From: Enterobacter phage EspM4VN
DNA: 64,000 bases
Reading direction: 5' to 3' (one strand)
Sequence record: LC373201.2
Positions 4,751 to 47,428 of the stretch are shown piece after piece. How positions within the stretch are numbered: the first letter of the stretch is position 1; the number at the start of each line of letters is the position of its first letter. The position numbers and the translations under genes are program-made. The notes under the pieces were generated by a model. That model worked only from the letters and a program-made list of their open reading frames with translations. It had not been told where the DNA came from and ran no database searches.

Positions 4751-4753
4751 ACA

Positions 4754-4775
4754 AAAGCCCCTTCGGGGGCTTCAT
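4754..4775 (+). terminator. intrinsic terminator hairpin (AAGCCCC-TTCG-GGGGCTT)
   Basis: GC stem with a TTCG loop immediately after the stop of the 1421..4750 gene. Confidence 0.6.
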
Positions 4776-4795
4776 GAGAACAACAGGAGATTCAC

Positions 4796-6592: not shown

Positions 6593-6603
6593 TTACAGCT
6601 TCA

Positions 6604-6611
6604 CTAAATAC
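6604..6611 (+). promoter_or_regulatory. late promoter variant CTAAATAC within palindrome AAATACCCCATA (6606-6617) / TATGGGGTAT (6631-6640)
   Basis: Same module as at 1377. It sits immediately upstream of the tailspike gene start at 6647. Confidence 0.55.
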
Positions 6612-6646
6612 CCCATATTGGCAAATCCTCTATGGGGTATCTTCAA

Positions 6647-9211: not shown

Positions 9212-9224
9212 GAATTGTAAAACC

Positions 9225-9246
9225 AAAGCCCTCTCCGGAGGGCTTT
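9225..9246 (+). terminator. intrinsic terminator hairpin (AAAGCCCTC-CGGA-GGGCTTT)
   Basis: Perfect stem after the stop of the 6647..9211 gene. Confidence 0.6.
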
Positions 9247-9275
9247 AACATGACTAAAACAACAGGAGATTCTTT

Positions 9276-11846
9276 ATGAATCCGCAATTTTCACAGCCGA
9301 AAGGCTCAGTTGGTAAAGAGACAAACAAGGACTCGATCGCCCGCAAGTTCGGGTGCAAGAAATCCGAGGTTCTCTACGCTAAACCAGGTTCCACCCTGAC
9401 TGGTTACAAGGTGATCTACGATAAGGTGTCTCAGCGCTCCTATGCACTGCCTTCTAACCTGCCTGCTGGCGCTACCATCACCAGCCTCACTGACGGCATT
9501 CTCGTACACAATACGGGCACTGTCGACTTGGGTGCACTGGCTGTGTTGCGTGGTGAGTTCGTTAATCTGGTCGAAAACTTCACAACCGGATTTACTTTGA
9601 AAGTGAAGAATGAACTGGTCAGCGACGGAGCGAACTTGTATCGTTGGGGTGGGAGTCTTCCTAAAACGGTCAGTGCTGGAACTAGCGTGGGTGCATCTGG
9701 TGGTGTCGGCTCATCTGCTTGGGTAAGACACAGCGAGTCGCTGGCAACGAATTTCACCCCGCGCCCGTACAAAGCACGAAATGACATTACATTCACAACT
9801 GGTGGTGTTGTCAACAAGGGTGAGGCGATCCTCTATGCAGACGATGGCTTGTATTATGCTTCACTTTCCACAAACCCGTATGTGACCGTGTCTACAGGAT
9901 TCACGCCAGACACTACGTGGATCTGTGTTGGCCTGCTGAACGAATACCCTCTGTGGGACAGCCGCGCATGGTATGCCCCATCCAGCACTCTAGACAACAC
10001 AAAGGCTGCGAAACAATTTTATCGCACGATGTCGCTTCTCGGGCTGGAAGCGCGATTTGTGGGTGACCTCCGTTTGTCTTCGCGAGTCACGGGGTACGCA
10101 CAACTCGATCTGTCGCAATGCCGTATCTACATAGACCCAAACAGTGATGACACTGTGTCTGGTGGTGGCGGCAAGGTGTTCTTGATTGAAGATCCCGACA
10201 CACAGGTTCTGACGGGGCAGAGCTTCGCCACTAGTAATATCGGCCAGGTCGCTCACGTTCAACTTAGTGGAGCGGCGTTCAGTAACAAAACCGTGGGCGT
10301 TGAGGGCGAAGGCACGAACAACCGCGCTTATCTCAGACAACCACAGAACACTTACATCCAGGCAAGTGATCTTTTTGTGATGGACGGCGGCACCACAGGC
10401 CTCCACCCAGATACTCCTGCGTTGTTCAAGTTCAACGACACCGCCAAGTTCATCATCAGACCACAACGTCCTGGTATGGTAATCAAAGGTGGCGAATTCA
10501 TCCTGGAAGCGCCTTTGTCTGGTGGTCGCAGTCTGAGAACCTGTATCGCAATCGAAAGAAACAACACATGCCTGGTTGGTGGTTATTTCAATGCCCAACA
10601 CGATGACGTCGTTGCAGAATCGTATGTTCAGTTTAGTTGGGTTTCCGACATCATGGTTATTGGTGTGTCGATGCCGAACAACGTGGCTTCTTCAAACTAT
10701 ATGATTTTAGCCCAGGGTACGAACAGACTGCGGGTTCAACATTGTCACGCCGCCGCAGGCTGGGCGCTGACTGATGGTAATTTCATGCGCAATACTGTGG
10801 TGGAAGACAGTTCTGGTGCGACTATCGGTTGTCACGCAATGGCCTGGAACTTTACAGTTCAACGCTGTACGCTCATGCCTGTTCTGGTTGGTGGAAATTA
10901 CCAGGGTGGTATCTCCCTGACGGGCGGTGGCCTGCTGAAGGTGAGAGATATCACTTACACCTACATGGGCGGTCCACGCAGATTAGACCATCCTGTATCC
11001 ACCCGTGGTGATTATGGCCAGTCTTGGGAAGGTGTGATCGATGTATCGCGTGTTCACCTGCGTTATGGCGCTGCTGCTCCGTCTGGGCAAGGGTGTTCTA
11101 TCGTATATTGTGAAGGTGCATACAACGGCGCTATAGACCTGACGCGCACCTGCTACCTCGGCGGTAAAGAGATCAACGTTCGCAATGTCCGTGTTGAAGT
11201 GTTGAACGCATCTTGGGGAGCAACAGAGGTTGTTCTGAGCCCTGCTTGGTTTGAGACTCAGTTCAGCCAGACTGTGAAATATCCCGAGACGTATCTTGTT
11301 GACAACTTTGTTGTTGAAGGTGTTGGCAACAACTTCTCCTTCGATCCGCGCTTCCCAGCTCTGGTGAGCAATACCAATGCTGTTGTCAGTACCTGCGTGG
11401 CTAATTTCAATAATGTGCAATGGCCTTCTACCAGCGCGGCCTTTATCGGCGCGGCAGCGAGTACGACATATCGCGTGACGTTGCTCCTCACTATCGAGAA
11501 CGCGAGAAGTTCATTATCTTTGAACTTGTTGGCTCTTCCTGCTGGTAGCAAGGCGACCATTCGTAAATGCATCATCGGGAACTTGGTTCTCGGGAATGCC
11601 AACAGTGCTGGCGAGTATTACCTGGAACGCAATACGGTCACAGGAACAAACTTCGGTGGCTCGCCTGCTGGCTCTGACAAGGCGTACTATTACCAGAACC
11701 ACATCACCACAGTCAATGCTGTGGCAGTGGGTACTGTGGCGAAGTACTGCCACGGAAACACGGTCGTCACCGGAGGCAGTATCACGGGAAGAACTCTCGA
11801 CGAATGGTACTCCTACCGAGACACTTCAGTCTTCCGCACAACGTAA
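9276..11846 (+). CDS. tailspike protein with Ackermannviridae-type N-terminal anchor domain (TSP4/TSP2-like)
   Basis: 856 aa. The N-terminus reads MNPQFSQPKGS ... GYKVIYDKVSQRSYALP ... VDLGALAVLRGEFV ... YRWGGSLPKTVSAGTS ... GGVGSSAW. This matches the conserved head-proximal region of ViI/CBA120-like tailspikes as I recall it. Confidence 0.7.
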   Translation: MNPQFSQPKGSVGKETNKDSIARKFGCKKSEVLYAKPGSTLTGYKVIYDKVSQRSYALPSNLPAGATITSLTDGILVHNTGTVDLGALAVLRGEFVNLVENFTTGFTLKVKNELVSDGANLYRWGGSLPKTVSAGTSVGASGGVGSSAWVRHSESLATNFTPRPYKARNDITFTTGGVVNKGEAILYADDGLYYASLSTNPYVTVSTGFTPDTTWICVGLLNEYPLWDSRAWYAPSSTLDNTKAAKQFYRTMSLLGLEARFVGDLRLSSRVTGYAQLDLSQCRIYIDPNSDDTVSGGGGKVFLIEDPDTQVLTGQSFATSNIGQVAHVQLSGAAFSNKTVGVEGEGTNNRAYLRQPQNTYIQASDLFVMDGGTTGLHPDTPALFKFNDTAKFIIRPQRPGMVIKGGEFILEAPLSGGRSLRTCIAIERNNTCLVGGYFNAQHDDVVAESYVQFSWVSDIMVIGVSMPNNVASSNYMILAQGTNRLRVQHCHAAAGWALTDGNFMRNTVVEDSSGATIGCHAMAWNFTVQRCTLMPVLVGGNYQGGISLTGGGLLKVRDITYTYMGGPRRLDHPVSTRGDYGQSWEGVIDVSRVHLRYGAAAPSGQGCSIVYCEGAYNGAIDLTRTCYLGGKEINVRNVRVEVLNASWGATEVVLSPAWFETQFSQTVKYPETYLVDNFVVEGVGNNFSFDPRFPALVSNTNAVVSTCVANFNNVQWPSTSAAFIGAAASTTYRVTLLLTIENARSSLSLNLLALPAGSKATIRKCIIGNLVLGNANSAGEYYLERNTVTGTNFGGSPAGSDKAYYYQNHITTVNAVAVGTVAKYCHGNTVVTGGSITGRTLDEWYSYRDTSVFRTT

Positions 11847-11942: not shown

Positions 11943-14900
11943 ATGCAAGAAATGAACCTCAACCGCCGCCCGTACTGGGATGACTGGAATCCAGAGAAGC
12001 GTTTTTCACGCATCCTGTTCCGTCCGGCTCCTATCAAAGTTCAGACGCGTGAACTGAACCAGATGCAGACCATCTTCCAAGATCAGCTGGAGAAACTTGG
12101 CAATCATCTCTTCAAAGATGGTTCCATGGTTATCCCAGGCGGCCTGACGATCACCAACACCGCAGTGTCTATGAAGTTCACTCTGGCTGGTGGTAGCGAG
12201 TTCACTGATCTGGAAGGTATCTCCGAACTCTATGTTCTGGGCAAGGACAACAATGCGAAAGCCCGTGTCCTGTCTCTGGAACGTTACCTGGCCGAGCCGG
12301 ACACAATGTACGCCATCTTGGAGATGACCGAGAGCGGCAGTTCAGACGGTTTCGAAGCTGGTGATGACCTGTACTTCAACACCTACGACGTGAATGATAA
12401 CTTCATTCGTGTTGGTTACGGTGTTGCTGCAACAGTCGGGGGTTCTATCGTTGCCCGTATGACCAAGGGCGTTTATTTCGTCCGTGGGATGTTCCTTGAT
12501 GTTGAGGCCGCCACCCTGATCGTCGACAACGCATCCAACTCCACTTCACACCGCGTTGGGTTCAAGGTGACAGAGACCATCGTCACCGAAGACGATGACG
12601 AAAGTTTGTTCTCCAATGCTCAGGGAACTCCTAACTCCAAAGCCCCTGGTGCGCACCGCTTCCGTGTCGACCTCGTGCTGTCTCGCTTCGGTTATGATGA
12701 AGAAGTGGCTGACTTCGTTGAACTGGCGAAGGTGAAGGACGGTCGCATTCAGTCTATGGTGACCCAGTCCACCTATAACATCCTCGAAGACACCATGGCT
12801 CAGCGAACCTATGAGACCAACGGTGACTACAACGTGTCTACGCACCAGATCGACCTGCGTGAACACCTGAAAGAGAACAACAACGGCGGCGTTTACACCC
12901 CTGCAGAAGGTGGTGATGAAAGCAAATTCGTGGCGGTTATGAAGCCAGGGATCTCCTATGTTCGCGGTCGCCGTATCGAAAACCTTGGTGAAGAACTGGT
13001 CACCATTGACAAGGCGCGTGACACCGATGTCTTGAACAACAACCCGGTGGCTGTTGCAACTGGCAACTACCTTGTGTCCAAGAACTCCAAGGGTGTCCCA
13101 GTCATATCGCGCACGATTCGTTACAAGTTCCTGAACGCATCAAGTGTAACCCAAGCCACCGCACTGCTGATTTCGGCAGAACGTTCCGGCTCTGAATTCC
13201 GCCTGTATATGCGCGACCTCGTTGTCACTGGGGACATGGGTACTGTCACCAAAGTTGCATACGAAGAAAGCGGTACAACAATGTTCTCCTGCGAACTGGA
13301 GTCCAATCAGTTCAGCCAGAGTTCAGCGATTGACCTGATCTTCCCTCTGCCTGTGTTTGGTGTGAAGACCCTGGCTCCTACAGGGACCATTGACATCAAC
13401 TACACTGTCCTGCGGTCAAACAAGATCACGTTGAACGCCGCTGGCGCAGGCTCAATCTCTGCTCCTCTGGGGTACAGCTTCAGTCCTGAATTCTCTTTGT
13501 ATTCGGCGGCGAAAGCAGATGGCACTGCGGCACAATTCGACGTTACTTCTGGTCTGTCCCTGACAGGTACGCCAGTGGGTTCTGCTCTCCAGATCTCGTT
13601 GGGCGCTGGCTATGCCAACCAATCCATCAACCTGCTGGCTCTGATGGTGCGCACAACGGCAACGATCAAAACCAAGACAGTTACTGAAGTCACGGAGACT
13701 GTAACGTTTACGACAGCGGCGAGTGTACCTCTTGCCAACCATGACGGATACAAGCTAGTGAGTGTGAAGAACGCAAGTGGCGCTGACGTCACCTCGAACT
13801 TCACTCTGGATGGCGGCCAGCGTGATGCTGCATACTATCGTTCTAACCTGTTATCGGGCACTGGAGCCATTTCAGGGACGTTCACGGTGGTGTATCAGTA
13901 TTTCGCTCACAGCTCTGGTGACTTCTTCACAGCGGATTCCTATTCTTCCATCGATTACCCAGACATCCCGAACTATGTTTCATCCAGTTCCGGTACTGTG
14001 TATGGTCTGGCAGACAGCCTGGACTTCCGTCCTAAGATCACCAGCGGTGCTTCCGACACTGACATGGTTCGCCCGAACACTGCTATCGTCCTCGATGCGG
14101 AGTACTATCTGCCTCGTATTGATGCCGTGTATCTGGCCGACAACGGCGTGTTCAACGTGGCTCGTGGTGTGAGTTCCAATAACCTGGCTTCGCCTGCGAT
14201 CCCAGACAACGGCATGCGTCTGTACGAACTGATGATCCCGCCTTACACGGCCAATATCGACGATATCCAGATCCGTACTATCGACAACCGCCGTTACACG
14301 ATGCGTGATATCGGTAAACTGGAGACCCGTATCTCTAACGTTGAATACTACACCTCACTGTCACAGCTGGAATCTTCAGCGATGACACAACAGGTGTTCG
14401 ATCCAATCACTGGCAACCCGCGCTTCAAAAACGGTATTGCAGCAGACCCATTCAAAGACTTCCGTCTGATCGACGATTTGTCTTCAGACTGGATGGGATC
14501 TATCGATACTGACAATGGTCGCCTGCGCCCGTTTGTTCAGCAGAACGCGATTGACCTGACGCCAGTCGGCTGGAACAACGTTCAGGATGGCATGGTTGTG
14601 TGCAACTACACCCGTGAGATCTCTGTACGTCAGGACTATGCGACCACGACCATCAACGTGAACCCGTATGCAGTGTTCAACTGGGAAGGTTTCCTGAAAC
14701 TGAACCCGACTACTGACTACTGGTTTGAGAACTACTATGTTGCTCCACGTGTGATCAACGAAACGATCAACACCCGTGGCGCGATCAAAGAGGGTTCTGT
14801 GTATGGCACATGGCGTACTGTGTCTGTGTCTGAGCGTGTGTGGGAACCGCATGGTGCAGGCGGTGTGTGGTGGGGCTACCGCTACCGCACGACTGTGTCC

Positions 14901-16703
14901 ACTCGTGACGTCACCACGTACACGTACACCGACAAGACGACGACTACCCTGACTGGTGAGCAGATCGTTGAAACGCAGGTTATCCCATACATGCGCAAAA
15001 CGAACATCAACTTTGAAGCCACAGGCCTGCGTCCGTTTACTCGCGTGTATCCGTTCTTCTCCGGTCGCGATGTCAGCCCGTACTGTACTCCAAACGGCGG
15101 GGCACTGGGCGGCGCGTTGAATACTGACGCCAACGGTAACATCAAAGGTGTGTTTGCAGTTCCTCAGAACGAGACTATCAAGTTCAACACGGGCGACAAC
15201 GTCTTCCGTCTGACCGACAGTCCTGTGGACAGCAAGTCTGCTGATGATACCCTGACCAATGCCGAGGCCGTTCACAAATCCTTCGGTAAGAAACAAGGCA
15301 TTCAGAAGACCTATGTCAACACTCGTGTGCTGGGCTACACTGCGACCAAGTCTACAGAGAACAAGACCGAGACGGTTGAAGTTGCGAAGTGGAAAGACCC
15401 GATTGCTCAATCCTTCATGGTTGCTACCAACATCGGCGGCGAATACATTGAAGGTATTGAAGTGTTCTTCTCCACCAAGTCCCGCGATATCCCGATCACT
15501 CTGGAAATCCGTGAGATGAGCAATGGTCTGCCAGCGACGACTGTGGTCACTCGTAAGACTTTGAACCCATCAGAAGTTTCCGTCTCTACAGACTCTTCTG
15601 TACCAACGATGTTCAAGTTTGATTATCCTGTGTATCTGCAGGCACAGACTGAGTTCGCGATCGTACTCCTGGCCAACACCCAAGATTACAATGCGTACAT
15701 CGCGGAGATGGGTAAGAAGAACTTGCTGACCAACGAGTTCATTGCCAAGCAGCCGTACACTGGCGTGTTCTTCACATCTTCAAACGGTACGACCTGGACT
15801 CCGAACCAGACTGCGGATATGAAGTTCCGTGTATATCGCTGCAACTTCGGTGCTGGTGATAACATCGTGACCTTCGATGCCAAAGTCGGTCCGAAGACTC
15901 GTCCTCTGGGTCTTAATGCTGTGAATTGCGTCAATGGTTCTTCAACTGTTACTGTGTACGCTCCAGGGCATGGCCTGACTGCGGGTGAAAGCGTGACATT
16001 GTCCGACCTGACGGGCGGCTGCGGGTTTACTCCAGAGCAGCTGAACATCCAGCATACTGTGACAGACGCGACGTTCACGACGTTCAAAGTGGTGCTGAGT
16101 TCTAGCGCAGACTCTGACGGCCAGATCGGCGGTGAGACGGCTTCTTTCTTGGGCAACTACTTGGTTGACATGTTCTATGCAAGTGTGACCAATTCAGCTC
16201 TGGAAGGTTCTGTGTTGAAACTGGAATACCGCTACCGCGATGCGACCTCCAACTCATTCTCTGATTGGGCTGAGTTCGAATCCGATACGGACGTACCGCT
16301 GCCGACGGAAGGCATCTATCGTCAGGTGGGTGATTTCCAGGTGCGGGCAACCATGACTCGCAACGAAAGCAACGTGTACACGGCTCCGATGATCGACGGT
16401 GATGACTTCACTATCATCTTCAACACCTACGGTGTGGATCCGTTCGAAGACGTGTTCAGCTACGTGACCAAGGATATCGGCTTCGATAACCCTTGCACCA
16501 CACTGAAGCAGTACTTCGGCGCGATGCTGCCTTCTCAGTCTTCAATGACTGTGCAGGTCAAACTGTTGCGTGCAGGTCAGGAGATGGACAATGTAGCATG
16601 GGAAACCGTGACACCGACGTCCCTCTGGTTAACGACGGTTCGACGTTCTTTGAATACGAATATGACAAGACCGTGGACAGCACCAACCCGTTTGTTGGCC
16701 TGA
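11943..16703 (+). CDS. very large virion structural protein (baseplate/tail-fibre-associated; function not assignable from sequence)
   Basis: 1586 aa. It carries a late promoter, sits between the tailspike cluster and the neck genes, and has no recognisable enzymatic motifs. Confidence 0.5.
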   Translation: MQEMNLNRRPYWDDWNPEKRFSRILFRPAPIKVQTRELNQMQTIFQDQLEKLGNHLFKDGSMVIPGGLTITNTAVSMKFTLAGGSEFTDLEGISELYVLGKDNNAKARVLSLERYLAEPDTMYAILEMTESGSSDGFEAGDDLYFNTYDVNDNFIRVGYGVAATVGGSIVARMTKGVYFVRGMFLDVEAATLIVDNASNSTSHRVGFKVTETIVTEDDDESLFSNAQGTPNSKAPGAHRFRVDLVLSRFGYDEEVADFVELAKVKDGRIQSMVTQSTYNILEDTMAQRTYETNGDYNVSTHQIDLREHLKENNNGGVYTPAEGGDESKFVAVMKPGISYVRGRRIENLGEELVTIDKARDTDVLNNNPVAVATGNYLVSKNSKGVPVISRTIRYKFLNASSVTQATALLISAERSGSEFRLYMRDLVVTGDMGTVTKVAYEESGTTMFSCELESNQFSQSSAIDLIFPLPVFGVKTLAPTGTIDINYTVLRSNKITLNAAGAGSISAPLGYSFSPEFSLYSAAKADGTAAQFDVTSGLSLTGTPVGSALQISLGAGYANQSINLLALMVRTTATIKTKTVTEVTETVTFTTAASVPLANHDGYKLVSVKNASGADVTSNFTLDGGQRDAAYYRSNLLSGTGAISGTFTVVYQYFAHSSGDFFTADSYSSIDYPDIPNYVSSSSGTVYGLADSLDFRPKITSGASDTDMVRPNTAIVLDAEYYLPRIDAVYLADNGVFNVARGVSSNNLASPAIPDNGMRLYELMIPPYTANIDDIQIRTIDNRRYTMRDIGKLETRISNVEYYTSLSQLESSAMTQQVFDPITGNPRFKNGIAADPFKDFRLIDDLSSDWMGSIDTDNGRLRPFVQQNAIDLTPVGWNNVQDGMVVCNYTREISVRQDYATTTINVNPYAVFNWEGFLKLNPTTDYWFENYYVAPRVINETINTRGAIKEGSVYGTWRTVSVSERVWEPHGAGGVWWGYRYRTTVSTRDVTTYTYTDKTTTTLTGEQIVETQVIPYMRKTNINFEATGLRPFTRVYPFFSGRDVSPYCTPNGGALGGALNTDANGNIKGVFAVPQNETIKFNTGDNVFRLTDSPVDSKSADDTLTNAEAVHKSFGKKQGIQKTYVNTRVLGYTATKSTENKTETVEVAKWKDPIAQSFMVATNIGGEYIEGIEVFFSTKSRDIPITLEIREMSNGLPATTVVTRKTLNPSEVSVSTDSSVPTMFKFDYPVYLQAQTEFAIVLLANTQDYNAYIAEMGKKNLLTNEFIAKQPYTGVFFTSSNGTTWTPNQTADMKFRVYRCNFGAGDNIVTFDAKVGPKTRPLGLNAVNCVNGSSTVTVYAPGHGLTAGESVTLSDLTGGCGFTPEQLNIQHTVTDATFTTFKVVLSSSADSDGQIGGETASFLGNYLVDMFYASVTNSALEGSVLKLEYRYRDATSNSFSDWAEFESDTDVPLPTEGIYRQVGDFQVRATMTRNESNVYTAPMIDGDDFTIIFNTYGVDPFEDVFSYVTKDIGFDNPCTTLKQYFGAMLPSQSSMTVQVKLLRAGQEMDNVAWETVTPTSLWLTTVRRSLNTNMTRPWTAPTRLLA

Positions 16704-16792
16704 AGATCCGCCTGCTGGTGAGAGGCAACCGTACAGCGCCGCCATCATTCAAAGATTTCCGTTTGATTGCTCTGGCATAAGTAGTATTACCA

Positions 16793-16811
16793 AGGCGGGG
16801 GCAACCCCGCC
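16793..16811 (+). other. GC hairpin AAGGCGGGGG-CAA-CCCCGCC (member of a recurring GGCGGGG/CCCCGCC hairpin family; no U-run)
   Basis: Inverted repeat seen directly. Similar hairpins occur at 18147, 40722 and 53711. Confidence 0.4.
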
Positions 16812-19794: not shown

Positions 19795-20490
19795 ATGAGT
19801 GCTATGTCAGAACGCCTATTGTCCACCCTCGGTGCTATCCAAGCGCGGGATGAGGTCGCTCAGGAAGTGATGGAGAAGACCGCGCCTGTGGCTGGGAAAG
19901 ATTATGATCCAGATACTGGAGTGTGGTTGGGTGAAAAGCCTGCAGGGTATGAGCCTGTGGTGTTCCCTCCTTCTCTGGACCCAGAAGAGCTGAAGTCCAA
20001 GGATTCCAAAGTCCCAGACTTTGACGACACGGACGCCACCACGGATTACAAACGCATCCGCGACACGACTTACGCCATGCAGGAAGCCACGATGTTCATG
20101 ATGGGACAGGCGGCCAAACTCGCGACGACCACAGAAGCGCCTCGGGCGTTTACAGTCTTCAAGGAGTTGGGTGAACTCATGCGCGGCCTGAACAAAGACT
20201 TGATGGAGAACCAGAAGACCATCAAGGCAGTTACAGGCGACAAAGAGCCTCCAACAGATGACACGACTGTCGAGGTCACAACATCTCCAGATGGTGCAAC
20301 CAAGGTTACAGTCGGGAAACAGGCGCGTTCTTCTCGAGATCTACTCAAGACAATCGAGGATGCCAAGAAGCGTGCTGACGAGCGTACTCAGTCCAAGGTT
20401 AAGCCGAACGAAGAAGTGATAGACGTTCAGGCTGAACAACCTGTGGAACCGAAGGATGAAGGTGAAGACAATGGCGTATCAGAAGCGTGA
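19795..20490 (+). CDS. putative terminase small subunit (T4 gp16 position)
   Basis: GGAG RBS and ATG 19795. The acidic, helical 232-aa protein lies directly upstream of the large terminase and overlaps it, as gp16 does in T4. Confidence 0.45.
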   Translation: MSAMSERLLSTLGAIQARDEVAQEVMEKTAPVAGKDYDPDTGVWLGEKPAGYEPVVFPPSLDPEELKSKDSKVPDFDDTDATTDYKRIRDTTYAMQEATMFMMGQAAKLATTTEAPRAFTVFKELGELMRGLNKDLMENQKTIKAVTGDKEPPTDDTTVEVTTSPDGATKVTVGKQARSSRDLLKTIEDAKKRADERTQSKVKPNEEVIDVQAEQPVEPKDEGEDNGVSEA

Positions 20491-22681
20491 TATAGAATAT
20501 GCCCCGCTCAAGACGGGGTTCAAGATAGAAGACGTCAAATTGCGTATGGACCAAACGTTCATGCGCAAGCCGTCTGTGCGCGCCCCTCGTGTCCAGTTGA
20601 TGTTGACAGATGAGCAGGAAGATGAATTCGTCGAATGCGCGATGGATGCCCATTACTTCGCTGCCAACTACTACAAGATCACGACTATCGATAAAGGCTT
20701 CATCCTATTCGATATGCACGACTATCAGAAGCAGTTGTTCCATGACTTCCAGGATCACCGCTTCAACGCCGTTGTCCAGGCACGTCAGTCAGGTAAATGT
20801 GTGAAGGGTGACAGCATCGTCGAGGTCTACGACACAGTCAGCCAAGAAGAGTTTAAAGTCACCATCGAGGAGCTTCACAGCCGCTTCGAGGGACCGAACC
20901 ACGCCGAGCCACTGAACGCCTTTGGCAAACACGATAAGTTCGTAGACAGCCGCTTCGGCAAGCGTTATTTCGTTCGCTGTGATATAGGCTGGGTGCCTGT
21001 CATCGCCGCGCACAAGACCAAGCAGTATCAGGAATATGTTGTCGTCACTTCCAGCGGCCGTCGTATCAACGTGGCCGATGATCACATGTTCTTCAATCAG
21101 AATATGAAGGAAGTGTTTGCCAAAGATCTGGTTGCTGGTTCACAGCTGATGACCGAAGAAGGTCTAGAAGAAGTCGTTGAGGTATGGCAGACTGGTGAGA
21201 TGCACCACATGTATGACCTACAGGTGAAATCCAGCGACCAGCGCTACTACACCAACGGCTTCCTCAGTCATAACACGACTGTTGTGGCTGCGTTCCTTCT
21301 CTGGTATGCGATGTTCCACTCTGACAAAGAGATCGCGGTACTGGCGAACAAAGAGAAGCAGGCGATTGAAATCCTTGACCGTATTCGTAAGGCGTATCAG
21401 GATTTGCCATTCTTCATCCAGCAGGGCTGTGAGAAGTTCGGCTCCACGCTCATCGAATTCGAGAACGGCTCGAAGATATACGCCTATGCAACATCTTCTG
21501 ACTCCATCCGTGGTCGATCTGTATCGCTCCTGTATGTGGACGAAGTGGCGTTCATCGAAAACGACTTTGAATTCTGGGAGTCAACATTCCCTGCGATTGC
21601 ATCTGCAGAGACTTCACGTTGTATCCTGACCAGTACACCGAAAGGCCAGCGCGGGTTGTTCTACGACATCGTCACCAAGGCGAACCCAGAACATCCTCAG
21701 TACAACGACTTCAATCTCACAGAGGTTCCATGGTATCGTGTGCCAACATACACCAAGGATCCAAACTGGGAATCCAAGCAGAGGGCGAAGCTGGGCGATG
21801 CACGTTTCGATCAGGAATTTGGCATCAAGTTCCGTGGGTCGGTCGGTTCACTTATCCCGGCCAAGTGCCTGGACAAGATGACCTCGAAGCTGTATCAGGA
21901 GCCGAACGAGTTCACCAAGATCTATCACGACTACGATCCGAAGCGAATCTATATGGGTATCGCAGATACAGGCAAGGGCGTCGAGGGGGATTATTCTGTG
22001 CTGACCATTATCGACATCACAGACTATCCTCACAAGATCGCAGCCAAGTATCGAAACAACACGATACCTCCAATGATGTATGCGTACACAATCGCCGATA
22101 TGGGCGAGAAGTATGGGACGTGTCCAATGTTGGTAGAAACCAACAACGACGTGGGTGGACAGGTAATCACAATTCTATATCAGGAAATTGAATATCCAGA
22201 GATCATCTTCACCACAACAGATGCGAAGGGTACTGGTAAGCGAATCGGCGGTAGGCGGCCTGAACCTGGTATCAACACCAACAAGAAGGTGCGCACAAAC
22301 GGCTGTGCCAACCTGAAAGCCCTGATCGAAAGGGAGATGCTGGTTGTTGACGATCAAGACACGATAGATGAACTCAGTACATTCGTATGGACTGGGACAA
22401 GGTATGAAGCCGATGATGGTTGTCATGATGACTGTGTAATGCCTCTTGTGCTGTATGCATGGGCGGTGAAACAAGAATGGTTTAGTGACCTCACCAATTC
22501 CAGTATCTCAGTCGACATGAGAGGCCGCTTGTCTGCGATGGAAGAATCGCAGATGATGCCTTTCGGTGGTGTGTTGTCGGCTCCTGATCCGTTCTCTGTG
22601 GAGAGTGTGCCAGGATTTGGTGGCGTGCAGGTTTATGACGAACGTTCTGGCATGTCCATGGAAGAATGGCTGAGACGGTGA
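20471..22681 (+). CDS. terL: terminase large subunit (T4 gp17 homologue) interrupted by an in-frame mini-intein in the Walker-A motif
   Basis: ARQSGK|[intein]|TTVVAAFLLW reconstitutes the T4 gp17 P-loop SRQLGKTTVVAIFLAHF. Downstream regions align with gp17 (KEIAVLANKEKQAIEILDRIRKAYQDLP ... GSKIYAYATSSDSIRGRSVSLLYVDEVAFI). The nuclease-domain region is also conserved. The start is taken at ATG 20471; GTG 20456 is also possible. Confidence 0.9.
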   Translation: MAYQKRDIEYAPLKTGFKIEDVKLRMDQTFMRKPSVRAPRVQLMLTDEQEDEFVECAMDAHYFAANYYKITTIDKGFILFDMHDYQKQLFHDFQDHRFNAVVQARQSGKCVKGDSIVEVYDTVSQEEFKVTIEELHSRFEGPNHAEPLNAFGKHDKFVDSRFGKRYFVRCDIGWVPVIAAHKTKQYQEYVVVTSSGRRINVADDHMFFNQNMKEVFAKDLVAGSQLMTEEGLEEVVEVWQTGEMHHMYDLQVKSSDQRYYTNGFLSHNTTVVAAFLLWYAMFHSDKEIAVLANKEKQAIEILDRIRKAYQDLPFFIQQGCEKFGSTLIEFENGSKIYAYATSSDSIRGRSVSLLYVDEVAFIENDFEFWESTFPAIASAETSRCILTSTPKGQRGLFYDIVTKANPEHPQYNDFNLTEVPWYRVPTYTKDPNWESKQRAKLGDARFDQEFGIKFRGSVGSLIPAKCLDKMTSKLYQEPNEFTKIYHDYDPKRIYMGIADTGKGVEGDYSVLTIIDITDYPHKIAAKYRNNTIPPMMYAYTIADMGEKYGTCPMLVETNNDVGGQVITILYQEIEYPEIIFTTTDAKGTGKRIGGRRPEPGINTNKKVRTNGCANLKALIEREMLVVDDQDTIDELSTFVWTGTRYEADDGCHDDCVMPLVLYAWAVKQEWFSDLTNSSISVDMRGRLSAMEESQMMPFGGVLSAPDPFSVESVPGFGGVQVYDERSGMSMEEWLRR
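20798..21274 (+). mobile_element. mini-intein (159 aa, no homing-endonuclease domain) inserted between Lys and Thr of the terminase P-loop
   Basis: It begins with Cys (CVKGDSIVEV, block A). It contains the block-B-like NVADDHMFF and ends YDLQVKSSDQRYYTNGFLSHN (block F/G, terminal His-Asn), followed by Thr (+1). Removing it restores a contiguous Walker-A motif. Confidence 0.85.
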
Positions 22682-22732: not shown

Positions 22733-24632
22733 TATGGCAACTACAAGCTTCAGCGTTGCGCCGTCCGTACAGTGGACGGAGCGTGATGCCACGCTTCAGA
22801 CGTCTCCGTCCGTTGTTGTTCAGGGCGCGACTGTTGGTAAATTCCAGTGGGGTGAAGTTGAACTCCCTGTGCTGGTTACTGGTGGTGAGACTGGTCTGGT
22901 GAAGAAATTCTTCAAACCTAACGATGACACTGCTGTCGACTTCCTGGTCGTGGCGGACTTCCTGTCCTATAGTTCTGTGGCATGGGTCACCCGTGTTGTC
23001 GGACCTCTGGCCAAGAACTCTGTGACCAAAGGCCAAACGGCGATCACCATCAAGAACAAATTGGACTTTGAATCAGCAAGCCCATCAGCATCTATCACCT
23101 GGACTGGTCGCTACCCTGGTTCTCTGGGTAACGATGTGGCGGTGAACATTTGTGACGCTGCGTCTTTCTCTACTTGGGAATTCCGCAACAACTTCGCTTA
23201 TGCTCCGCAGGCTGGTGAATACCACATTGTCGTTCTGGACAAAGTAGGTCGCATTACCAACTCTTCTGGTGCTGTTGGTCAGGTTGAGCGTATCTCCCTG
23301 TCCGGTACTGCGACCGCTGATGGCAACATCACCGTCGATGGCGTGGCTTACGACTTCCTGACTGGTGATACAGCGGCCGAGATTGCTGCTCAGCTGGGCA
23401 CTGATCTGGCGGCTCTGACAAACAAGTTCACCAACGTGGTAGCCAAGTCCAACACTGTGACTTTCACTCGCGTTGACATCGGTCCACAGACTGCAATTGC
23501 TGTTTCTGTTGAAGCCTCCAAAGGCATCACCATCGGCAACGTTGTAACCACTGTTGGTACTTCCGGCTCCATCATCGAGAAGTATGAACTGATGCAGCAG
23601 ACCCAGGGTTCTAAGAAATCCGACGGCGCGAATGCATACTTCAAAGATGTGATCAACGACACGTCCAACTGGGTGTATGTCTTCACCGATACTCTGGCGG
23701 CTGGCGTGACCGAGCTGGAAGGTGGTGTTGACGATTACGATGTGAACCGCGTGGCGGCCATCGAAGTTCTGAACAACGCAGAAGCCTACGCCGCCAAACC
23801 AGTGTTCGCATACTGTGAAGAACTCATCGAGCAGCAGGCCATCATCGATCTGTCCACCGAGCGCAAAGACACCGTGTCCTTCGTTTCTCCACTGCGAGAT
23901 AACGTTGTTGGCAACCGTGGTCGTGAGATGGATGATGTTGTGGCCTGGCGTGAAAGCCTGGTGCGCGACTCCTCCTACTTCTTCATGGATGACAACTGGG
24001 CGTATGTGTACGACAAGTACAACGACAAGATGCGTTGGATCCCTGCTTGTGGCGGTACGGCGGGTGTTTGGGCACGCAGCATTGAGCTGGCTGGTATCTA
24101 CAAGTCTCCGGCGTTCCATAACCGTGGCAAATACAACAACTACAACCGTATGGCGTGGTCTGCGTCTTCTGATGAGCGTGCTGTCCTGTATCGCAACCAG
24201 ATCAACAGCATCGTTACCTTCTCCACCGAAGGCATCGTGCTGTATGGCGACAAGACTGGCCTGACCCGCCCATCTGCGTTCGATCGCATCAACGTTCGCG
24301 GCCTGTTCATCATGGCAGAACAGAACATCGCTGCAATCGCCAAATACTACCTTGGTGAAAACAACGATGAGTTCACTCGCAGCCTGTTCAGCAACGCAGT
24401 GCGTCCGTATCTGCGCCAGCTGACCAACATGGGTGCGATCTATGACGGTACTGTCAAGTGTGATGCAGACAACAACACTGCCGATATCATCGCTGCGAAC
24501 CAGATGGTTGCGGGTATCTGGATGAAACCAGAATACTCTATCAACTGGGTGTACCTGGACTTCGCTGCTGTTCGTCCGGATATGGAGTTCAGCGAGATCG
24601 AAACGGGTGGTGGCATCGTAGCCGCATCCTGA
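22733..24632 (+). CDS. gp18: tail sheath protein, T4 gp18 homologue
   Basis: 632 aa. The N-terminal ...ATVGKFQWGEVELPV aligns with T4 gp18 ...ALAGKFQWGPAFQI. A GAAGGAA RBS precedes ATG 22733. Confidence 0.9.
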
Positions 24633-24636
24633 TAAG

Positions 24637-24665
24637 AAAGCCCGCTCCGGCGGGCAATTTCTTTG
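24637..24665 (+). terminator. intrinsic terminator (AAAGCCCGC-TCCG-GCGGGC, then AATTTCTTTG)
   Basis: Hairpin plus a T-rich tail after the sheath gene stop. Confidence 0.55.
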
Positions 24666-24670
24666 AAGAC

Positions 24671-24678
24671 CTAAATAG
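24671..24678 (+). promoter_or_regulatory. late promoter variant CTAAATAG upstream of the tail tube gene
   Basis: The sequence gaagacCTAAATAGaattgtg lies about 30 nt before ATG 24709. Confidence 0.4.
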
Positions 24679-24708
24679 AATTGTGTAACTCTTTTTGGAG
24701 AATCTATA

Positions 24709-25241
24709 ATGGCTACAGTTAATGAATTTCGCGCGGCCATGTCACGTGGGGCGGCGTACAACGTCAGCACCGCTGGCGTGTGACCGTCAACTTCCCAGCT
24801 TTCGTAGCAGGTTCGGACACCATTCGTGACGTGTCCCTGTTGGCTGTAACGACCAACACCCCTACTGGTCAGCTGGGCGAGATCCTTGTGCCTTGGGGTG
24901 GTCGTGAACTTCCATTCCCTGGTGACCGTCGCTTCGAAGCACTGCCTATCACATTCATCAACGTGGTAGAGAACGGACCATACAATGCCTTTGAGGTCTG
25001 GCAGCAGTACATCAACGGTAGCAACAACAACCGTGCAAGCGCGAACGCTGACGACTACTTCCGTGACGTGATCATGGAGTTGCTGGACGCGAACGACAAC
25101 GTCACCAAGACCTGGACTCTGCAGGGGACCTGGCCTCAGAACCTCGGTCAGCTGGAACTGGATATGTCCGCGATGGACTCATATACTCAGTTCACTGTTG
25201 ATTTGCGCTACTTCCAAGCCATCTCTGACCGATCTCTCTAA
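24709..25241 (+). CDS. gp19: tail tube protein, T4 gp19 homologue; the reading frame is broken by an apparent 1-nt deletion near 24778-24783 (the N-terminal 24 codons are in a different frame from the rest)
   Basis: The first segment (ATG 24709, GGAGAA RBS) encodes MATVNEFRAAMSRGAAYNVSTAGV and then hits TGA. It aligns with the T4 gp19 N-terminus MFVDDVTRAFESGDFARPNLFQV. The -1 frame from 24780 encodes TVNFPAFVAG ... GDRRFEALPITFIN ... TWTLQGTWPQNLGQLELD, which aligns with gp19 NFTFQ ... GDRTFDDWTVTVMN ... IKGLWPTNVGELQLD. There is no slippery heptamer. The gene is essential, so a sequencing indel is the most likely explanation. Confidence 0.75.
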
Positions 25242-25254
25242 TGTCCTCAGTGCT

Positions 25255-25274
25255 GGGGGAATCTTTATTCCCCC
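25255..25274 (+). terminator. hairpin GGGGGAAT-CTTT-ATTCCCCC after the tail tube gene
   Basis: Perfect 8-bp stem. It is followed by tcactaattacaag, a CTAAATAC-like element ahead of the portal gene. Confidence 0.5.
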
Positions 25275-25308: not shown

Positions 25309-27000
25309 ATGGCATTCGGTAATGGTGCATTCGGTAACGGGTTCTTCGGTCTGTTCGGTACTGGCGGGAAGATTGAAGCCCCAGTAGACACCGACAAGCT
25401 GGTAACGAACCAAGAAGAGAAGTTGCTTTCTAAAGCAACTGTTGTTGCGCTGGACGATGCTCAGGATGGTTCTATCATCTTGCAGGGCGGTGCCAACACA
25501 TTCAATTTCGTAGGCGTTGAGAGTGAACTGCTCAGCGTCAAACAAGTCGTCGAAGAATACCAGTCTATGGCTCAGCAACCTGAGATCCGTAAGGCTGTCG
25601 ACATCATCGTGAACGACGTCGTCACCTGTGAAGAGGATGAGACGCCAGTCACCATCAATCTAGAGAAGGTTGAGGGGATCAATGACGCTCTGAAAGAGAA
25701 GATCAGCGATGCCTTCAAGGAAGTTCTTGAACTCATGGACTTCGACAACACCGCATACCAAAAGATCCGTCGCTGGTATGTAGAAGGTCGTCAGGCTTAC
25801 CATGTTGTTGTTGATCCCAAGAACAAGAAGAATGGTATCGCCAAGCTGGTGATGCTGGACTCTCGTTGTATCCGGCCTGTGTATATCGTTCAGAAAGAAC
25901 TTCGCGATGGCGTTGAAGTTATCAGCAATGTCAAACTTCAATACTACTACAATCCGAATTACAACCGCAATCAGTTCACTGGCCAGTCTGGCACTTCACA
26001 GAACTTTCAGCCGTCTCAGCAAGAACTGGTGTTTGATGAAGAAAGCATTGTCTACATCGACAGCGGTGAAGATCCATTGGCCAATGGGGTTATCCCAGGC
26101 CTGCTGAACCCTGCTATCCGTCCCCTGAACAACCTCGTTACAACTGAGGATGCGACGGTCATCTATGCCATCACACGTGCCCCTGAGAAGCGAGCGTTCT
26201 ATCTCGACGTGGGTACTCTGGGCAAGAAGTCTGCGGAAGAGTATATGCAGGCGATGATGGGTAAGTTCAAGAACCGTCTGGCGTATGACCGCACCACTGG
26301 TAAAGTAGCAGGCAACACCCATCTGATGGGTATCGCTGAAGACTACTGGTTGCCACGCCGTGAAGGTCAGAACGCAACGGAGATATCCAACGTAGGTGGT
26401 GGCGATCAGCTGGGTCAAATGGATCACGTAGTATACTTCCGCGAGAAGCTCTATGAGGCTCTGATGATCCCTAAGAGCCGTCTCCAAGAGGAAGGTTCCA
26501 TCAACATCGGCGGTTCCAATCTTGCTGAGATCACCCAGGAAGAACTGCGCTTCAACAAATTCTGTGCAGGCCTGCGTCGTCGTTATTCAGGATTCTTCCT
26601 TGAACTTCTTCGCCGTCAGCTGATCCTGAAGAACATCACCGACCAGACTGATTGGAACGAAAAGATCAAGCCGTTTGTCAAGTTCGAGTTCACTTCCGAC
26701 AGCTTCATTCGTGAGCAGCAGGAAAACGAAATCCTGGCGCAACGCATGTCTGCTCTTGGCCAGATCGAACCGTACATTGGCACTCTATTCTCTATCGATT
26801 ATGCTCAGCGCAATCTGCTGCGTATGTCTGACGAAGACATCAAAGAACAGCAAGAGAAGATCGCGCAAGAGAAGAAAGACGGGAAATATCCTGAAGTGCA
26901 GGCAGATGAATCCGGCGGCTTCGGCGGCGGCGAAGTCAGCCCACTGAAATTCAGACCTAACGTCATCCCAGCGCCAATCCAGCCTGGTGGTGAAGAATAA
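25309..27000 (+). CDS. gp20: portal protein, T4 gp20 homologue
   Basis: RRWYVEGRQAYHVVVDPKNKKNGIAKLVMLD aligns with T4 gp20 [31 protein letters not shown]. Further matches include VIYAITRAPEKRAFYLDVGT and EDYWLPRREGQNATEI. Confidence 0.9.
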   Translation: MAFGNGAFGNGFFGLFGTGGKIEAPVDTDKLVTNQEEKLLSKATVVALDDAQDGSIILQGGANTFNFVGVESELLSVKQVVEEYQSMAQQPEIRKAVDIIVNDVVTCEEDETPVTINLEKVEGINDALKEKISDAFKEVLELMDFDNTAYQKIRRWYVEGRQAYHVVVDPKNKKNGIAKLVMLDSRCIRPVYIVQKELRDGVEVISNVKLQYYYNPNYNRNQFTGQSGTSQNFQPSQQELVFDEESIVYIDSGEDPLANGVIPGLLNPAIRPLNNLVTTEDATVIYAITRAPEKRAFYLDVGTLGKKSAEEYMQAMMGKFKNRLAYDRTTGKVAGNTHLMGIAEDYWLPRREGQNATEISNVGGGDQLGQMDHVVYFREKLYEALMIPKSRLQEEGSINIGGSNLAEITQEELRFNKFCAGLRRRYSGFFLELLRRQLILKNITDQTDWNEKIKPFVKFEFTSDSFIREQQENEILAQRMSALGQIEPYIGTLFSIDYAQRNLLRMSDEDIKEQQEKIAQEKKDGKYPEVQADESGGFGGGEVSPLKFRPNVIPAPIQPGGEE

Positions 27001-29201: not shown

Positions 29202-30533
29202 ATGACCATCATGGCTAAGAAACTTGTTACCGAACAAATGCGCGAGCAGTGGCTGCCAGTTCTTCAGAAAGAATCTGAAAGTATCCAGCCGCTTTCTGCC
29301 GAAAACGTTGCCGTCCGCCTGCTGCAAAACCAGGCTGAGTGGAACGCCAAAAACCTGGGCGAATCCGACGCTCCTGGTTCTGTAAACGCCTCTGTGGGCA
29401 AATGGCAGCCAGTCCTGATCGACATGGCTAAACGTCTGGCTCCGATCAACATCGCGATGGACTTCTTCGGTGTTCAGCCGCTGTCTGGTCCTGACGGTCA
29501 GATCTTTGCTCTGCGTGCTCGCCAGGGTATCGCCGACGGTTCCAACACCCAACAGTCCCGTAAAGAACTGTTCATGCAGGAAGCTGATTCTGGCTACTCT
29601 GGTGACGGTACTGTACAGGCTGGTGACCCATCTGGCTTTACTCAGGCCGAGATCGAAGGTTCCGGCGCTGGCGTGACCACCATCGGTAAAGGCATGCCAA
29701 CCACCGACGCTGAACTGCTGGGTACTACCACCAACCCTTGGGCGCGTGTTGGTATCACCGTTCAGAAAGCAACCGTGACTGCGAAGTCTCGCGGCCTGTA
29801 CGCTGACTACAGCCACGAGCTGCGTCAGGACATGATGGCGATCCACGGCGAAGACGTTGACAGCATCCTGTCCGACGTGATGGTAACTGAAATTCAGGCC
29901 GAGATGAACCGTGAGTTTATCCGCACCATGAACTTCAGCGCAGTACGCTTCAAAAAATTCGGCGCAAACGGCGTTGTAGACATCTCCACCGACATCTCCG
30001 GTCGTTGGGCGCTGGAAAAATGGAAGTACATGACTTTCATGCTGGAAGTCGAAGCGAACGGCATCGGTGTTGACACCCGTCGTGGTAAAGGCAACCGTGT
30101 TCTGTGTTCTCCGAACGTAGCATCCGCTCTGGCGATGTCCGGCATGCTGGATTACGCTCCGGCACTGCAGGAAAACACCAAGCTGGCGATCGACCCAACT
30201 GGCCAGACCTTCGCTGGTGTTCTGTCTAACGGTATGCGTGTCTACATCGACCCGTATGCAGTAGCAGAGTACATCACCCTGGCATACAAAGGCGCGACCG
30301 CGCTGGATGCTGGTATCTTCTTCGCGCCGTATGTGCCGCTGGAAATGTACCGCACCCAGGGTGAAACCACCTTCAGCCCACGTATGGCGTTCAAAACTCG
30401 TTACGGCATCTGCGCGAACCCATTCGTACAGATCCCAGCGAACCAGGACCCACAGGTTTACGTGACTGCCGACGGTATCGCTCAGGACAGCAACCCTTAC
30501 TTCCGTAAAGGTCTGATCAAAGGTCTGTTCTAA
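29202..30533 (+). CDS. gp23: major capsid protein, T4 gp23 homologue
   Basis: MTIMAKKL ...; PINIAMDFFGVQPLSGPDGQIFALRA aligns with T4 gp23 PNLIAFDICGVQPMNSPTGQVFALRA. Further matches include DNPWNEMGFRID, KSRGLYADYSHELRQDM, NRVLCSPNVASAL, YAPYVPLEMYRTQ and MAFKTRYGICANPF. Confidence 0.9.
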   Translation: MTIMAKKLVTEQMREQWLPVLQKESESIQPLSAENVAVRLLQNQAEWNAKNLGESDAPGSVNASVGKWQPVLIDMAKRLAPINIAMDFFGVQPLSGPDGQIFALRARQGIADGSNTQQSRKELFMQEADSGYSGDGTVQAGDPSGFTQAEIEGSGAGVTTIGKGMPTTDAELLGTTTNPWARVGITVQKATVTAKSRGLYADYSHELRQDMMAIHGEDVDSILSDVMVTEIQAEMNREFIRTMNFSAVRFKKFGANGVVDISTDISGRWALEKWKYMTFMLEVEANGIGVDTRRGKGNRVLCSPNVASALAMSGMLDYAPALQENTKLAIDPTGQTFAGVLSNGMRVYIDPYAVAEYITLAYKGATALDAGIFFAPYVPLEMYRTQGETTFSPRMAFKTRYGICANPFVQIPANQDPQVYVTADGIAQDSNPYFRKGLIKGLF

Positions 30534-30552
30534 TCTAACAGACTGGTCCTAC

Positions 30553-30578
30553 AAAACCCCGCTTCGGCGGGGTTTTTC
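30553..30578 (+). terminator. strong intrinsic terminator (AAAACCCCGC-TTCG-GCGGGGTTTTT) after the major capsid gene
   Basis: Perfect 10-bp GC stem, TTCG loop and a U-run. Confidence 0.8.
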
Positions 30579-30625
30579 ATTATGGGGATTCGCTATATGA
30601 TGTGCCAAACTAATTGGAGGCCATC

Positions 30626-30850
30626 ATGATTGACAAAGAAATAGACATCCGCGGCATAGAGCTGCAGGGCACCAAGAAATATATCGTCTCCATACTGGAA
30701 GACATAGACAAAGAAACAAGCGAAACCCGCAAAGGATTCGGGTGGCTGTTGCGATCTAAAGAATTGGAGAGTCTCCGCCTGTTCAGGCGAGTTGTCTGCA
30801 TTATGCTTGACGACATCAATGAAAAGATCGCCAAGCACATTCCGAGCTAA
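30626..30850 (+). CDS. hypothetical protein (74 aa)
   Basis: GGAGG RBS 5 nt before ATG 30626. Confidence 0.4.
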   Translation: MIDKEIDIRGIELQGTKKYIVSILEDIDKETSETRKGFGWLLRSKELESLRLFRRVVCIMLDDINEKIAKHIPS

Positions 30851-30942
30851 TTCCTTTATCGTGTCGATTTAATACCCGCGTTGTTCAATACACCCACCTG
30901 TTGTATGCTTATACAGTCAACCATACAACAGGAGTACAAATC

Positions 30943-34590: not shown

Positions 34591-34598
34591 CTAAATAC
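34591..34598 (+). promoter_or_regulatory. late promoter variant CTAAATAC within palindrome AAATACCCCCAT / ATGGGGTATTT (34610-34620)
   Basis: Same module as at 1377 and 6604. The gene start is ATG 34625. Confidence 0.55.
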
Positions 34599-34624
34599 CC
34601 CCATCATCCATGGGGTATTTTCTT

Positions 34625-37803: not shown

Positions 37804-39311
37804 ATGGCAGACATTCAGATTGTTAAGGTTAACGAAGTCCGCATGCGTTGCATCGCAGATCTTTCTATCAGGGAAGAACTGAATGACTACTTCAAATTCG
37901 AAGACCCGAACTTCGTTCCCAACCCTTCTCTAAATGGGACGGGGTTGTTCGCTTGTTTACCAAGTCATCCGGCCTGATCGATATCGGCCTACTGTTTGAG
38001 GTGTTCAAGTTCTGCAAGAACAACAAATACACCATCGAACTGGATCCGGCTCTGAAGTACATTCAGGACATCCCAGATGAAGAAATCCATGACTTCATCG
38101 ACAGCCTGCATCCAAAGATTCGCACCGAAAATCACGAATACATCGATGCCGAGACCCGTGACTATCAGTACGACACCATCGCCAAGGCTATGCGTCAAAC
38201 CAGATGCGTCTGTGAACTGGCTACGAGTGCTGGTAAGTCCTTTATTCTGTATGTCATGGCGCGGTACTACAGGCAGCGCAGAGAAGCTCTCGAAAGCCCT
38301 CTGAAGACGCTTATCGTGGTGCCGTCGATTCACCTGGTTACTCAGCTGTACGACAACTTTGAAGAGTATGCACACGGCAGTGATTGGAAGCCCGTTGTCA
38401 ACACTCAGCTGATCTATGAGGGTGCGACTAAACAGATCAGCAAGCCGATCGTCATCAGTACATGGCAGGGCATTCAAGACCAGCCGAAGGAATGGTTCCA
38501 TCAGTTCGGTGACATCGTGGTGGATGAAGTGCACACCTCCAAGTCTGAGAAGCTGTCCTACATCCTGAACAACTGCATCTATGCAGATCAGCGTCTGGGT
38601 GTTACGGGTACGCTGGCAAACACGAAGGTCGCAGGCCTGCAGGTCGTGGCCCACTTCGGGGCATACCACAAGATCATCACGGCTCGCGACCTTATCAATC
38701 TCGGGTATGCCACCGACATCAAGGTGAAGATGATCCAGCTGAAGCACACTTCAGCAGATGCAGTTGGTCTGGACGGGGATTATACCAAGGAAATAGAATA
38801 CCTTATTACACACCAATCCCGCAACGAACTGATCGCCAAGATGGCACTGAATCTGAAAGGGAACGTGGCGATCATGTTCGAGCGTATTGATGGCCACATG
38901 ATGGTCGTGTATGATATGCTGAGCGCAGTTAAGCCCAACGTGTTTGTCATCAACGGGGAAGTGAAGATCGAAGACCGCCGCCGCATACAGAAAGCGATGG
39001 AGGATGGAGAAGATATCACCCTGTTGGCTTCATATGGGACAATGCAGCAGGGTGTGTCAATCAAGAAGTTACATCACCTTGTGCTGGCGCACCCGAGCAA
39101 GTCGTATATCCGCGTCATACAGACATTGGGTCGTCTGATGCGTCAGCACTCCTCTAAGGACGTCGCATGGATATGGGATTTAGTGGATGATGTGTCTTAC
39201 AACGCAAGCACGAACCACGCTATCAGGCACTCTCATGAGCGTTACAAGTTCTACCTGACAGAGCGCCACCCTGTGGAGTTCATGAAGGTGGCGCTGGGTA
39301 ATCACGATTGA
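37804..39311 (+). CDS. uvsW: UvsW-type DExH helicase (T4 UvsW homologue); frame broken by an apparent 1-nt deletion near 37926-37935
   Basis: Frame 1 encodes MADIQIVKVNEVRMRCIADLSIREELNDYFKFEDPNFVPNP, which aligns with T4 UvsW MDIKVHFHDFSHVRIDCEESTFHELRDFFSFEADGYRFNP. The -1 frame continues ...KWDGVVRLF ... FKFCKNNKYTIELD, which aligns with NWDGRIRLL ... KKFCDNFGYKAWID. After that come the Q-motif DYQ, Walker-A ATSAGKS, VVDEVH, TWQGIQDQPKEWFHQFG, and KKLHHLVLAHPSKS ... WDLVDD, all UvsW-like. Confidence 0.8.
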
Positions 39312-39679: not shown

Positions 39680-40023
39680 ATATTACTCTCGTGTGTTGGT
39701 TAACCTGACATACATATTATTTCGCGTGCATGTTTAGACCAAATTAAATTAATTTTGCTGTTGAATAAAAACTGCTTTCCTGTTGAACAAATGGCGTGGT
39801 ATTATACGAGTTGTGAGTGTTAACGAGCAACGAGTATTAGCAGTTATGAGCGAAGCGAATAGGATTAATAAAGATTATTATCTTTAATAAAGTCCATAAA
39901 TGCCGAAGGCATTTATTAATAACGCGTAGCGTAATTTGCCACTTGTTCTATAAGCACAACACAGCGATACTAGATTGCGTCAAACATGACTTGAACCCCA
40001 CTATATTTTGAGGATACATACAA
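39680..40023. promoter_or_regulatory. 344-bp AT-rich divergent intergenic region with sigma70-like hexamers and palindromes; probable early promoter region
   Basis: Contains TTGAAT ... TTGAAC ... TATTAT/TATACG hexamers, TTGAAC ... CTATAT before gene 45, and a perfect hairpin ATAAATGCC-GAA-GGCATTTAT (39897-39917). AAAGAT-TATT-ATCTTT and a direct repeat TTAATAAAG occur at 39873-39902. Confidence 0.4.
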
Positions 40024-47407: not shown

Positions 47408-47428
47408 CCTGTCGGCCTCGGCCTGAGC

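Follow-up and report, generated by a model that had tools for sequence, protein, structure and literature searches.

A tail tube gene split between two reading frames in Enterobacter phage EspM4VN: a probable homopolymer undercall in the assembly

The sequence of Enterobacter phage EspM4VN (LC373201.2), of which the whole 64,000-nt stretch analyzed herein is referred to as the window, raises the question of how its tail tube protein is encoded. The tube gene, comprising 533 nt at 24709–25241, is split between two frames in the sequence as given: reading in frame 1 starts at ATG 24709 and ends at TGA 24781–24783 after 24 codons (MATVNEFRAAMSRGAAYNVSTAGV), and an ORF of 153 codons in the −1 frame (frame 3) extends from GTG 24780 to 25241. 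The initial annotation had described this split, and its coordinates and codon counts are exact. It had considered a 1-nt deletion in the assembly most likely, and a short protein starting at the GTG codon as the alternative.

The site of the break was located in a DNA alignment of seven sequences, i.e., the window and six Ackermannviridae phages (Table 1). The window reads CGT-GGGG-CGG where the relatives read CGT-GGGGG-C/TGG, and the same difference between G5 and G4 was seen again in a separate alignment with RC-2014, Ag3, and XF4. Among the N-termini of the six relatives, only residue 2 (Ala or Ser) varies. Frame 3 is free of stops from 24726 onward, and its translation from 24750 is the same as that of the relatives, such that the conserved segment GGVQRQHRWR sits in the −1 frame upstream of GTG 24780; AAYNVSTAGV, residues 15–24 of the 24-codon ORF, is an out-of-frame translation outside the tube protein. 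Judged from these alignments, the frame changes at codon 14/15, approximately 30 nt upstream of the stop/GTG junction, and not at 24780, where the initial annotation had placed the junction. Codons 1–14 would lie in frame 1 and codons 15–177 in frame 3 because one G of the G5 run is missing, and the 24-codon ORF, its TGA, and the apparent GTG start would all be consequences of reading on in frame 1 beyond the missing base. The homology proposed for the entire 24-codon N-terminus is thereby confined to its first 14 residues, residues 15–24 being out of frame.

Table 1. Positions of the features of the tail tube region and of the other frame breaks in the window.
Feature	Position	Strand	Remark
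CTAAATA(C/G) copies	1377, 6604, 18414, 24671, 27854, 28210, 34591, 37772	+	
Tail sheath gene	22734–24632		upstream neighbor of the tube gene
CTAAATAG, late-promoter-like motif	24671–24678	+	31 nt upstream of tube start codon
GGAG Shine–Dalgarno	24697–24700	+	8 nt before ATG 24709, read from sequence
Tube gene, true 5′ segment, codons 1–14, MATVNEFRAAMSRG	24709–24750	+	frame 1; equals N-terminus of six relatives
G4 run, site of missing base	24748–24751	+	G5 in all relatives; sole in-gene gap of alignment
Rest of tube gene, codons 15–177 and stop	24750–25241	+	frame 3; codes GGVQRQHRWRVTVNFPAF...
GTG, internal Val25 codon, not start	24780–24782	+	CGT GTG ACC = R24 V25 T26, invariant in relatives
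TGA, premature stop met in frame 1 past missing base	24781–24783	+	same TGA out of frame in all relatives
Terminator-like hairpin after tube gene	25244–25259	+	
Portal gene	25309–27000		downstream neighbor of the tube gene
Deletion in 1612-aa structural protein gene (11943–16780)	16621–16623	+	C3; C4 in relatives
Deletion in UvsW-like helicase gene (37804–39311)	37923–37925	+	C3; C4 in relatives
Deletion in 228-aa signal-peptide protein gene (56591–57276)	56609–56611	+	codon 7; G3; G4 in relatives
Deletion in ATP-dependent DNA helicase gene (60241–61958)	60446–60447	+	CC; CCC in relatives

Addition of one G yields a gene of 534 nt with 177 codons and a stop, which has neither internal stops nor gaps relative to the relatives; the tube CDS is 534 nt long in all six relatives fetched, as against 533 nt in the window. 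A tube gene is expected to form a single uninterrupted ORF, which the window copy does only after this addition. The restored protein is 98.9% identical to the tube protein of LIMEstone1 (ORF144), which carries the annotation "confirmed structural protein," and matches T4 gp19 (PDB 5iv5 and 5w5f) with a phmmer E-value of 7.8e-10. Its score against Pfam PF06841 is 26.2 bits, slightly below the gathering cut-off of 28.2; given this sub-threshold score, assignment to the gp19 type is based on the PDB match and the 98.9% identity to annotated tube proteins. Furthermore, the gene lies between the sheath and portal genes, as expected of a gp19-type tube gene, and this order of sheath, tube, and portal is common to the window and the Ackermannviridae tube genes of LIMEstone1 (ORF144), Ag3 (Gp19), and RC-2014 (YP_009102949), although the window copy is one base short and occupies two frames as given, reaching 177 codons once repaired.

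The initial annotation had additionally claimed homology of the N-terminus to that of T4 gp19. HMMER detected no homology of the tube N-terminus to T4 gp19 itself, the alignment to 5iv5 beginning at residue 48; what stands of the claim is that the N-terminus is conserved in phage relatives. In a tblastn search of 50,697 phage records, the restored protein matched 364 records, each with at least 80% of the query covered at a single place. The 60 rows sampled along the tblastn ranking, which extend to 38% identity, are without exception single-piece matches starting at residue 1–4, and the N-terminal 24 residues are kept in relatives down to the same identity. By this comparison, an intact single-frame tube gene including its N-terminus is the rule. 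Downstream of the break, the window differs from RC-2014 at 55 nt and at only one amino acid.

These comparisons bear on the proposal that the sequence is correct and that a truncated tube protein of 153 aa is translated from GTG 24780, possibly by termination–reinitiation at the overlapping GTGA. The stop/GTG overlap (G-TGA) has a geometry able to couple translation, and the 153-aa ORF keeps the part aligning to PF06841 and T4 gp19. However, the GTG is a conserved internal Val25 codon, and the overlap is best regarded as a coincidence because all relatives also contain the out-of-frame TGA. The ten preceding frame-3 codons encode the same residues as in the relatives, which vary there only synonymously, and no Shine–Dalgarno-like sequence precedes GTG 24780. 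ATG 24709, by contrast, retains the conserved GGAG, and the Shine–Dalgarno region TTTTGGAGAAT is identical in all seven aligned sequences. A start at the GTG would also dispense with the 24 residues that distant relatives keep, and reviews describe an N-loop that takes part in subunit contacts in tube proteins of the gp19 type (PMC8718954). Owing to the internal Val codon, the lack of a Shine–Dalgarno sequence, and the conserved in-frame codons before it, GTG 24780 was rejected as the true start, and the short protein envisaged in the initial annotation is very hard to credit.

The tube gene is not the only gene affected. A tblastn comparison of the annotated RC-2014 proteins with the window disclosed three more genes that change frame, and a fourth extra frame break came from the gap listing of nucleotide alignments; each break site was aligned against three relatives (RC-2014, Ag3, and XF4). 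All four are window-specific 1-nt deletions in short G or C runs inside conserved genes (Table 1). In the gene of the 1612-aa structural protein, tblastn switches frame at 16622, and one added C gives an ORF of 4839 nt without gaps or stops. In the gene of the ATP-dependent DNA helicase, the break falls directly after the codons for the Walker A sequence GVGKS, and the shift must occur at the short C run because the −1 frame opens only at 60444. With one base added, each of the five genes, the tube gene included, regains the exact length found in the relatives (534, 4839, 1509, 687, and 1719 nt), and none of the five then contains internal stops or gaps. Runs of at least three G or C cover 5.5% of the window, and the chance of all five deletions falling within them is approximately 5e-7.

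When the screen was widened to every stop-to-stop ORF of the three relatives, no further in-gene break emerged, and no in-gene 1-nt insertions were seen in the window relative to the relatives. Screen candidates near 16800, 27000, 32400, 32940, 36000, 39780–39840, 40740, 47400, 54720, 57660, and 58980 were not counted, the majority of the stop-to-stop ORF candidates being intergenic indels or antisense shadow ORFs, as judged from gene coordinates. Specifically, candidate 47409 lies just past a stop codon in a direct alignment, candidate 32411 is an extra G peculiar to XF4 and not a break of the window, and candidate 58990 is an 11-nt gap relative to Ag3 within a diverged stretch.

The five deletions might be real mutations of a defective genome, which would be either a non-viable variant within a population or metagenome or a lineage in decay following loss of function. 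Replication slippage in homopolymers yields just such 1-nt deletions, and run context alone cannot separate an artefact from a mutation because slippage favors homopolymers too. The condition of the genes is more informative. Five independent inactivating deletions would have had to hit the tube protein, the 1612-aa structural protein, two helicases, and a conserved 228-aa protein, whereas every other conserved gene compared reads in a single frame. The broken genes carry no stops or other indels and retain 96–100% amino acid identity on both sides of the break despite 7–11% nucleotide divergence. Relative to RC-2014, the 1612-aa gene shows 393 nt and 36 aa differences upstream of its break and 11 nt and no aa differences downstream, and the helicase shows 69 nt and 6 aa differences. 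Such ratios indicate that strong purifying selection persists on both sides of each of the five breaks; neither an excess of non-synonymous change nor the further stops and indels of a pseudogene were found in any of the five genes. True decay would relax selection and reach beyond G or C runs. An artefact is preferred to real mutation because all five inactivating deletions hit conserved genes on which purifying selection otherwise acts; this pattern, with every defect of one narrow kind, would suit neither a viable lytic phage nor a decaying genome, and a defective genome is accordingly regarded as unlikely.

Recoding would account for the layout in principle: on a correct sequence, programmed −1 ribosomal frameshifting or transcriptional slippage at the G run would produce the full-length tube protein. 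A −1 shift at GGG-G would give exactly the conserved tube protein, and frame 3 is open across the 55-nt overlap at 24726–24780. Against this, a heptamer scan in the incoming frame found no X XXY YYZ match in the overlaps of the five sites, and the segment 24752–24850, folded without pseudoknots, has a stability of −33.1 kcal/mol (z = −1.06), which 31 of 200 shuffled sequences equal; the scan and the fold test agree with the initial annotation, which had seen neither a slippery heptamer nor a stimulatory structure. RNA polymerase slippage requires a long homopolymer, typically 7–9 or more A or T, and the longest homopolymer among the five overlaps, at 4 nt, falls far short of this. The two-frame layout is furthermore absent from the relatives, where the protein is encoded in one frame, and a major structural protein would require near-complete shift efficiency.

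Known tail frameshifts offer a limited parallel. Lambda G/GT and SPP1 gp17.1/gp17.1* share with the window two overlapping frames within the tail gene region, but they possess a slippery sequence, are conserved in relatives, and yield two products at a fixed ratio with a C-terminal or chaperone extension, none of which is seen in the window (PMC8718954; PMC8785237). The SPP1 gp17.1* frameshift in the tube gene gives a minority of copies an additional C-terminal domain; it extends a C-terminus but rescues no N-terminus (PMC8718954). No relevant report of a frameshift in the tube gene of an Ackermannviridae phage was found in the literature. Recoding of the tube gene is considered very improbable. 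The most far-fetched proposal extends it to all five sites: the five deletions would be real, and the phage would decode the tube gene and other expected-essential genes by shifting efficiently, in a non-canonical manner, to the −1 frame at short G or C runs, which would imply genome-wide frameshift tolerance without a known signal. If the sequence were correct, a phage relying on signal-less frameshifts to express its tail tube and two helicases would be remarkable; nothing found supports that.

The remaining explanation, to which we assign a probability of approximately 0.9, is that a systematic homopolymer undercall in the assembly broke the tube gene. In the real phage the gp19-type tube gene would be intact; in the assembly one G of the G5 run would not have been called, and short G or C runs would have been under-called likewise at no fewer than four other conserved genes. 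The cause, a homopolymer undercall or an unpolished consensus, would lie in the sequencing or assembly rather than in the phage. The error is deemed systematic because window-specific loss of a single nucleotide from a G or C run also affects four more conserved genes. We infer, on strong grounds, that the assembly lacks bases that the DNA contains, and the split tube gene is almost certainly no biological feature. The deletion lies inside a mononucleotide run, the relatives are intact, the defect recurs in the assembly, and a single base restores a colinear ORF. The suggestion of a 1-nt assembly deletion in the initial annotation is in this way backed by the G5 run of six aligned relatives, the one-G repair, and the four sister defects.

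The splitting of phage genes by homopolymer indels is a documented artefact of sequencing and assembly (PMC10438801; PMC8785237). In the assemblies described therein, including those of the Phage Annotation Guide (PMC8785237), a one-base error in run length splits a conserved gene into two ORFs, and several genes per assembly are hit, are found via homologous phages, and are repaired by one base, as is the case here. The present runs differ in being short (3–5 nt) and of G or C only, and the changes in being deletions only, the cause itself being inferred. Two considerations run counter to a plain undercall: by the standards of classic 454 or Ion Torrent undercalls, a run of 3–5 bases is short, and in-gene errors of this kind are not seen in A/T runs of comparable length. 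If the undercall reading is right, the assembly contains at least five frame-breaking homopolymer undercalls in 64 kb, which matters for quality control and not for biology. Any truncated, split, or GTG-started gene in this assembly should be compared with relatives before it is interpreted, and the record is in need of re-polishing or targeted resequencing ahead of annotation.

Certain run-length differences outside the five genes were also observed. Two intergenic G or C runs, at 34613–34616 and 47408–47409, are one base shorter than in relatives and may be further undercalls. The former belongs to a terminator-like hairpin at approximately 34598–34616, whose left and right arms contain C5 and G4 in the window and C5 and G5 in Ag3; the latter is a CC directly after the TAA stop at 47405–47407, where Ag3 has CCC. 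Conversely, XF4 (KY942057) has GGGG near 34299, the equivalent of window position 32411, as against GGG in the window, RC-2014, and Ag3. This extra G falls inside a small conserved gene and may be a homopolymer error in the deposited genome, so that deposited genomes of this group would also not be free of such indels.

On sequence grounds, the window is assigned to a Vi1-like myovirus of the Ackermannviridae, subfamily Aglimvirinae. Approximately 290 Ackermannviridae (Vi1-like) phages match the tube region, none of them identically; the nearest records, at 89–93% nucleotide identity, are the Dickeya Limestoneviruses RC-2014 and XF4 and the Agtreviruses Ag3, MK-13, and P46FS4. Independent copies of this particular lineage were sought by exact patterns. 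A 41-mer containing the G4 run had no match in IMG/VR; a window-specific 51-mer downstream of the G run had none in IMG/VR, JGI metagenomes, or GTDB genomes; and neither the portal protein nor the 153-aa ORF was matched in exact-protein look-ups with a protein-position index. A control 42-mer with G5 matched one IMG/VR contig, which indicates that the exact-pattern method works and that the lineage is absent from these collections.

The tube gene is flanked by further elements (Table 1). The motif upstream of its Shine–Dalgarno sequence is one of eight copies of CTAAATAS in the window, all on the + strand, compared with 1.43 expected; none of 100 shuffled sequences reaches eight. The majority of the copies precede the start codons of structural or late genes by 30–45 nt, that of the tube gene among them, and CTAAATA(C/G) looks like a putative late-promoter element of this phage group.

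Several other features of the window were recorded. Limestoneviruses carry homing-endonuclease genes at four loci (in window coordinates, 24633–24708, 20440–20490, 37804–39311, and around 30531–30940) where the window has none and resembles Ag3 and MK-13. In Limestoneviruses, the gap between sheath and tube genes holds F-LimII (XF4), F-LimVIII (LIMEstone1), or an unnamed endonuclease (RC-2014); F-LimIX lies between the terminase subunits, the I-LimI intron or an HNH gene lies inside uvsW, and a homing-endonuclease gene lies next to the major capsid gene, all of them absent from the window.

The large terminase (20456–22681; 741 aa) shows a weak match to an Intein_splicing/HINT-like domain at residues 130–233 (27.1 bits against a cut-off of 35.8), N-terminal to its Terminase_6N domain. 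The terminase of relatives is of the same length class, that of RC-2014 having 735 aa, and a "pretoxin HINT domain protein" is listed for the terminase region in one GenBank record; TerL may contain a conserved intein or HINT insertion. Finally, in the tailspike genes at 2700–9300, only a conserved stretch of approximately 570 nt (6601–7172) matches, at 78–92%, and the host specificity of the phage is probably new, since the receptor-binding parts of the tailspikes are without a close match in the 50,697 phage records.
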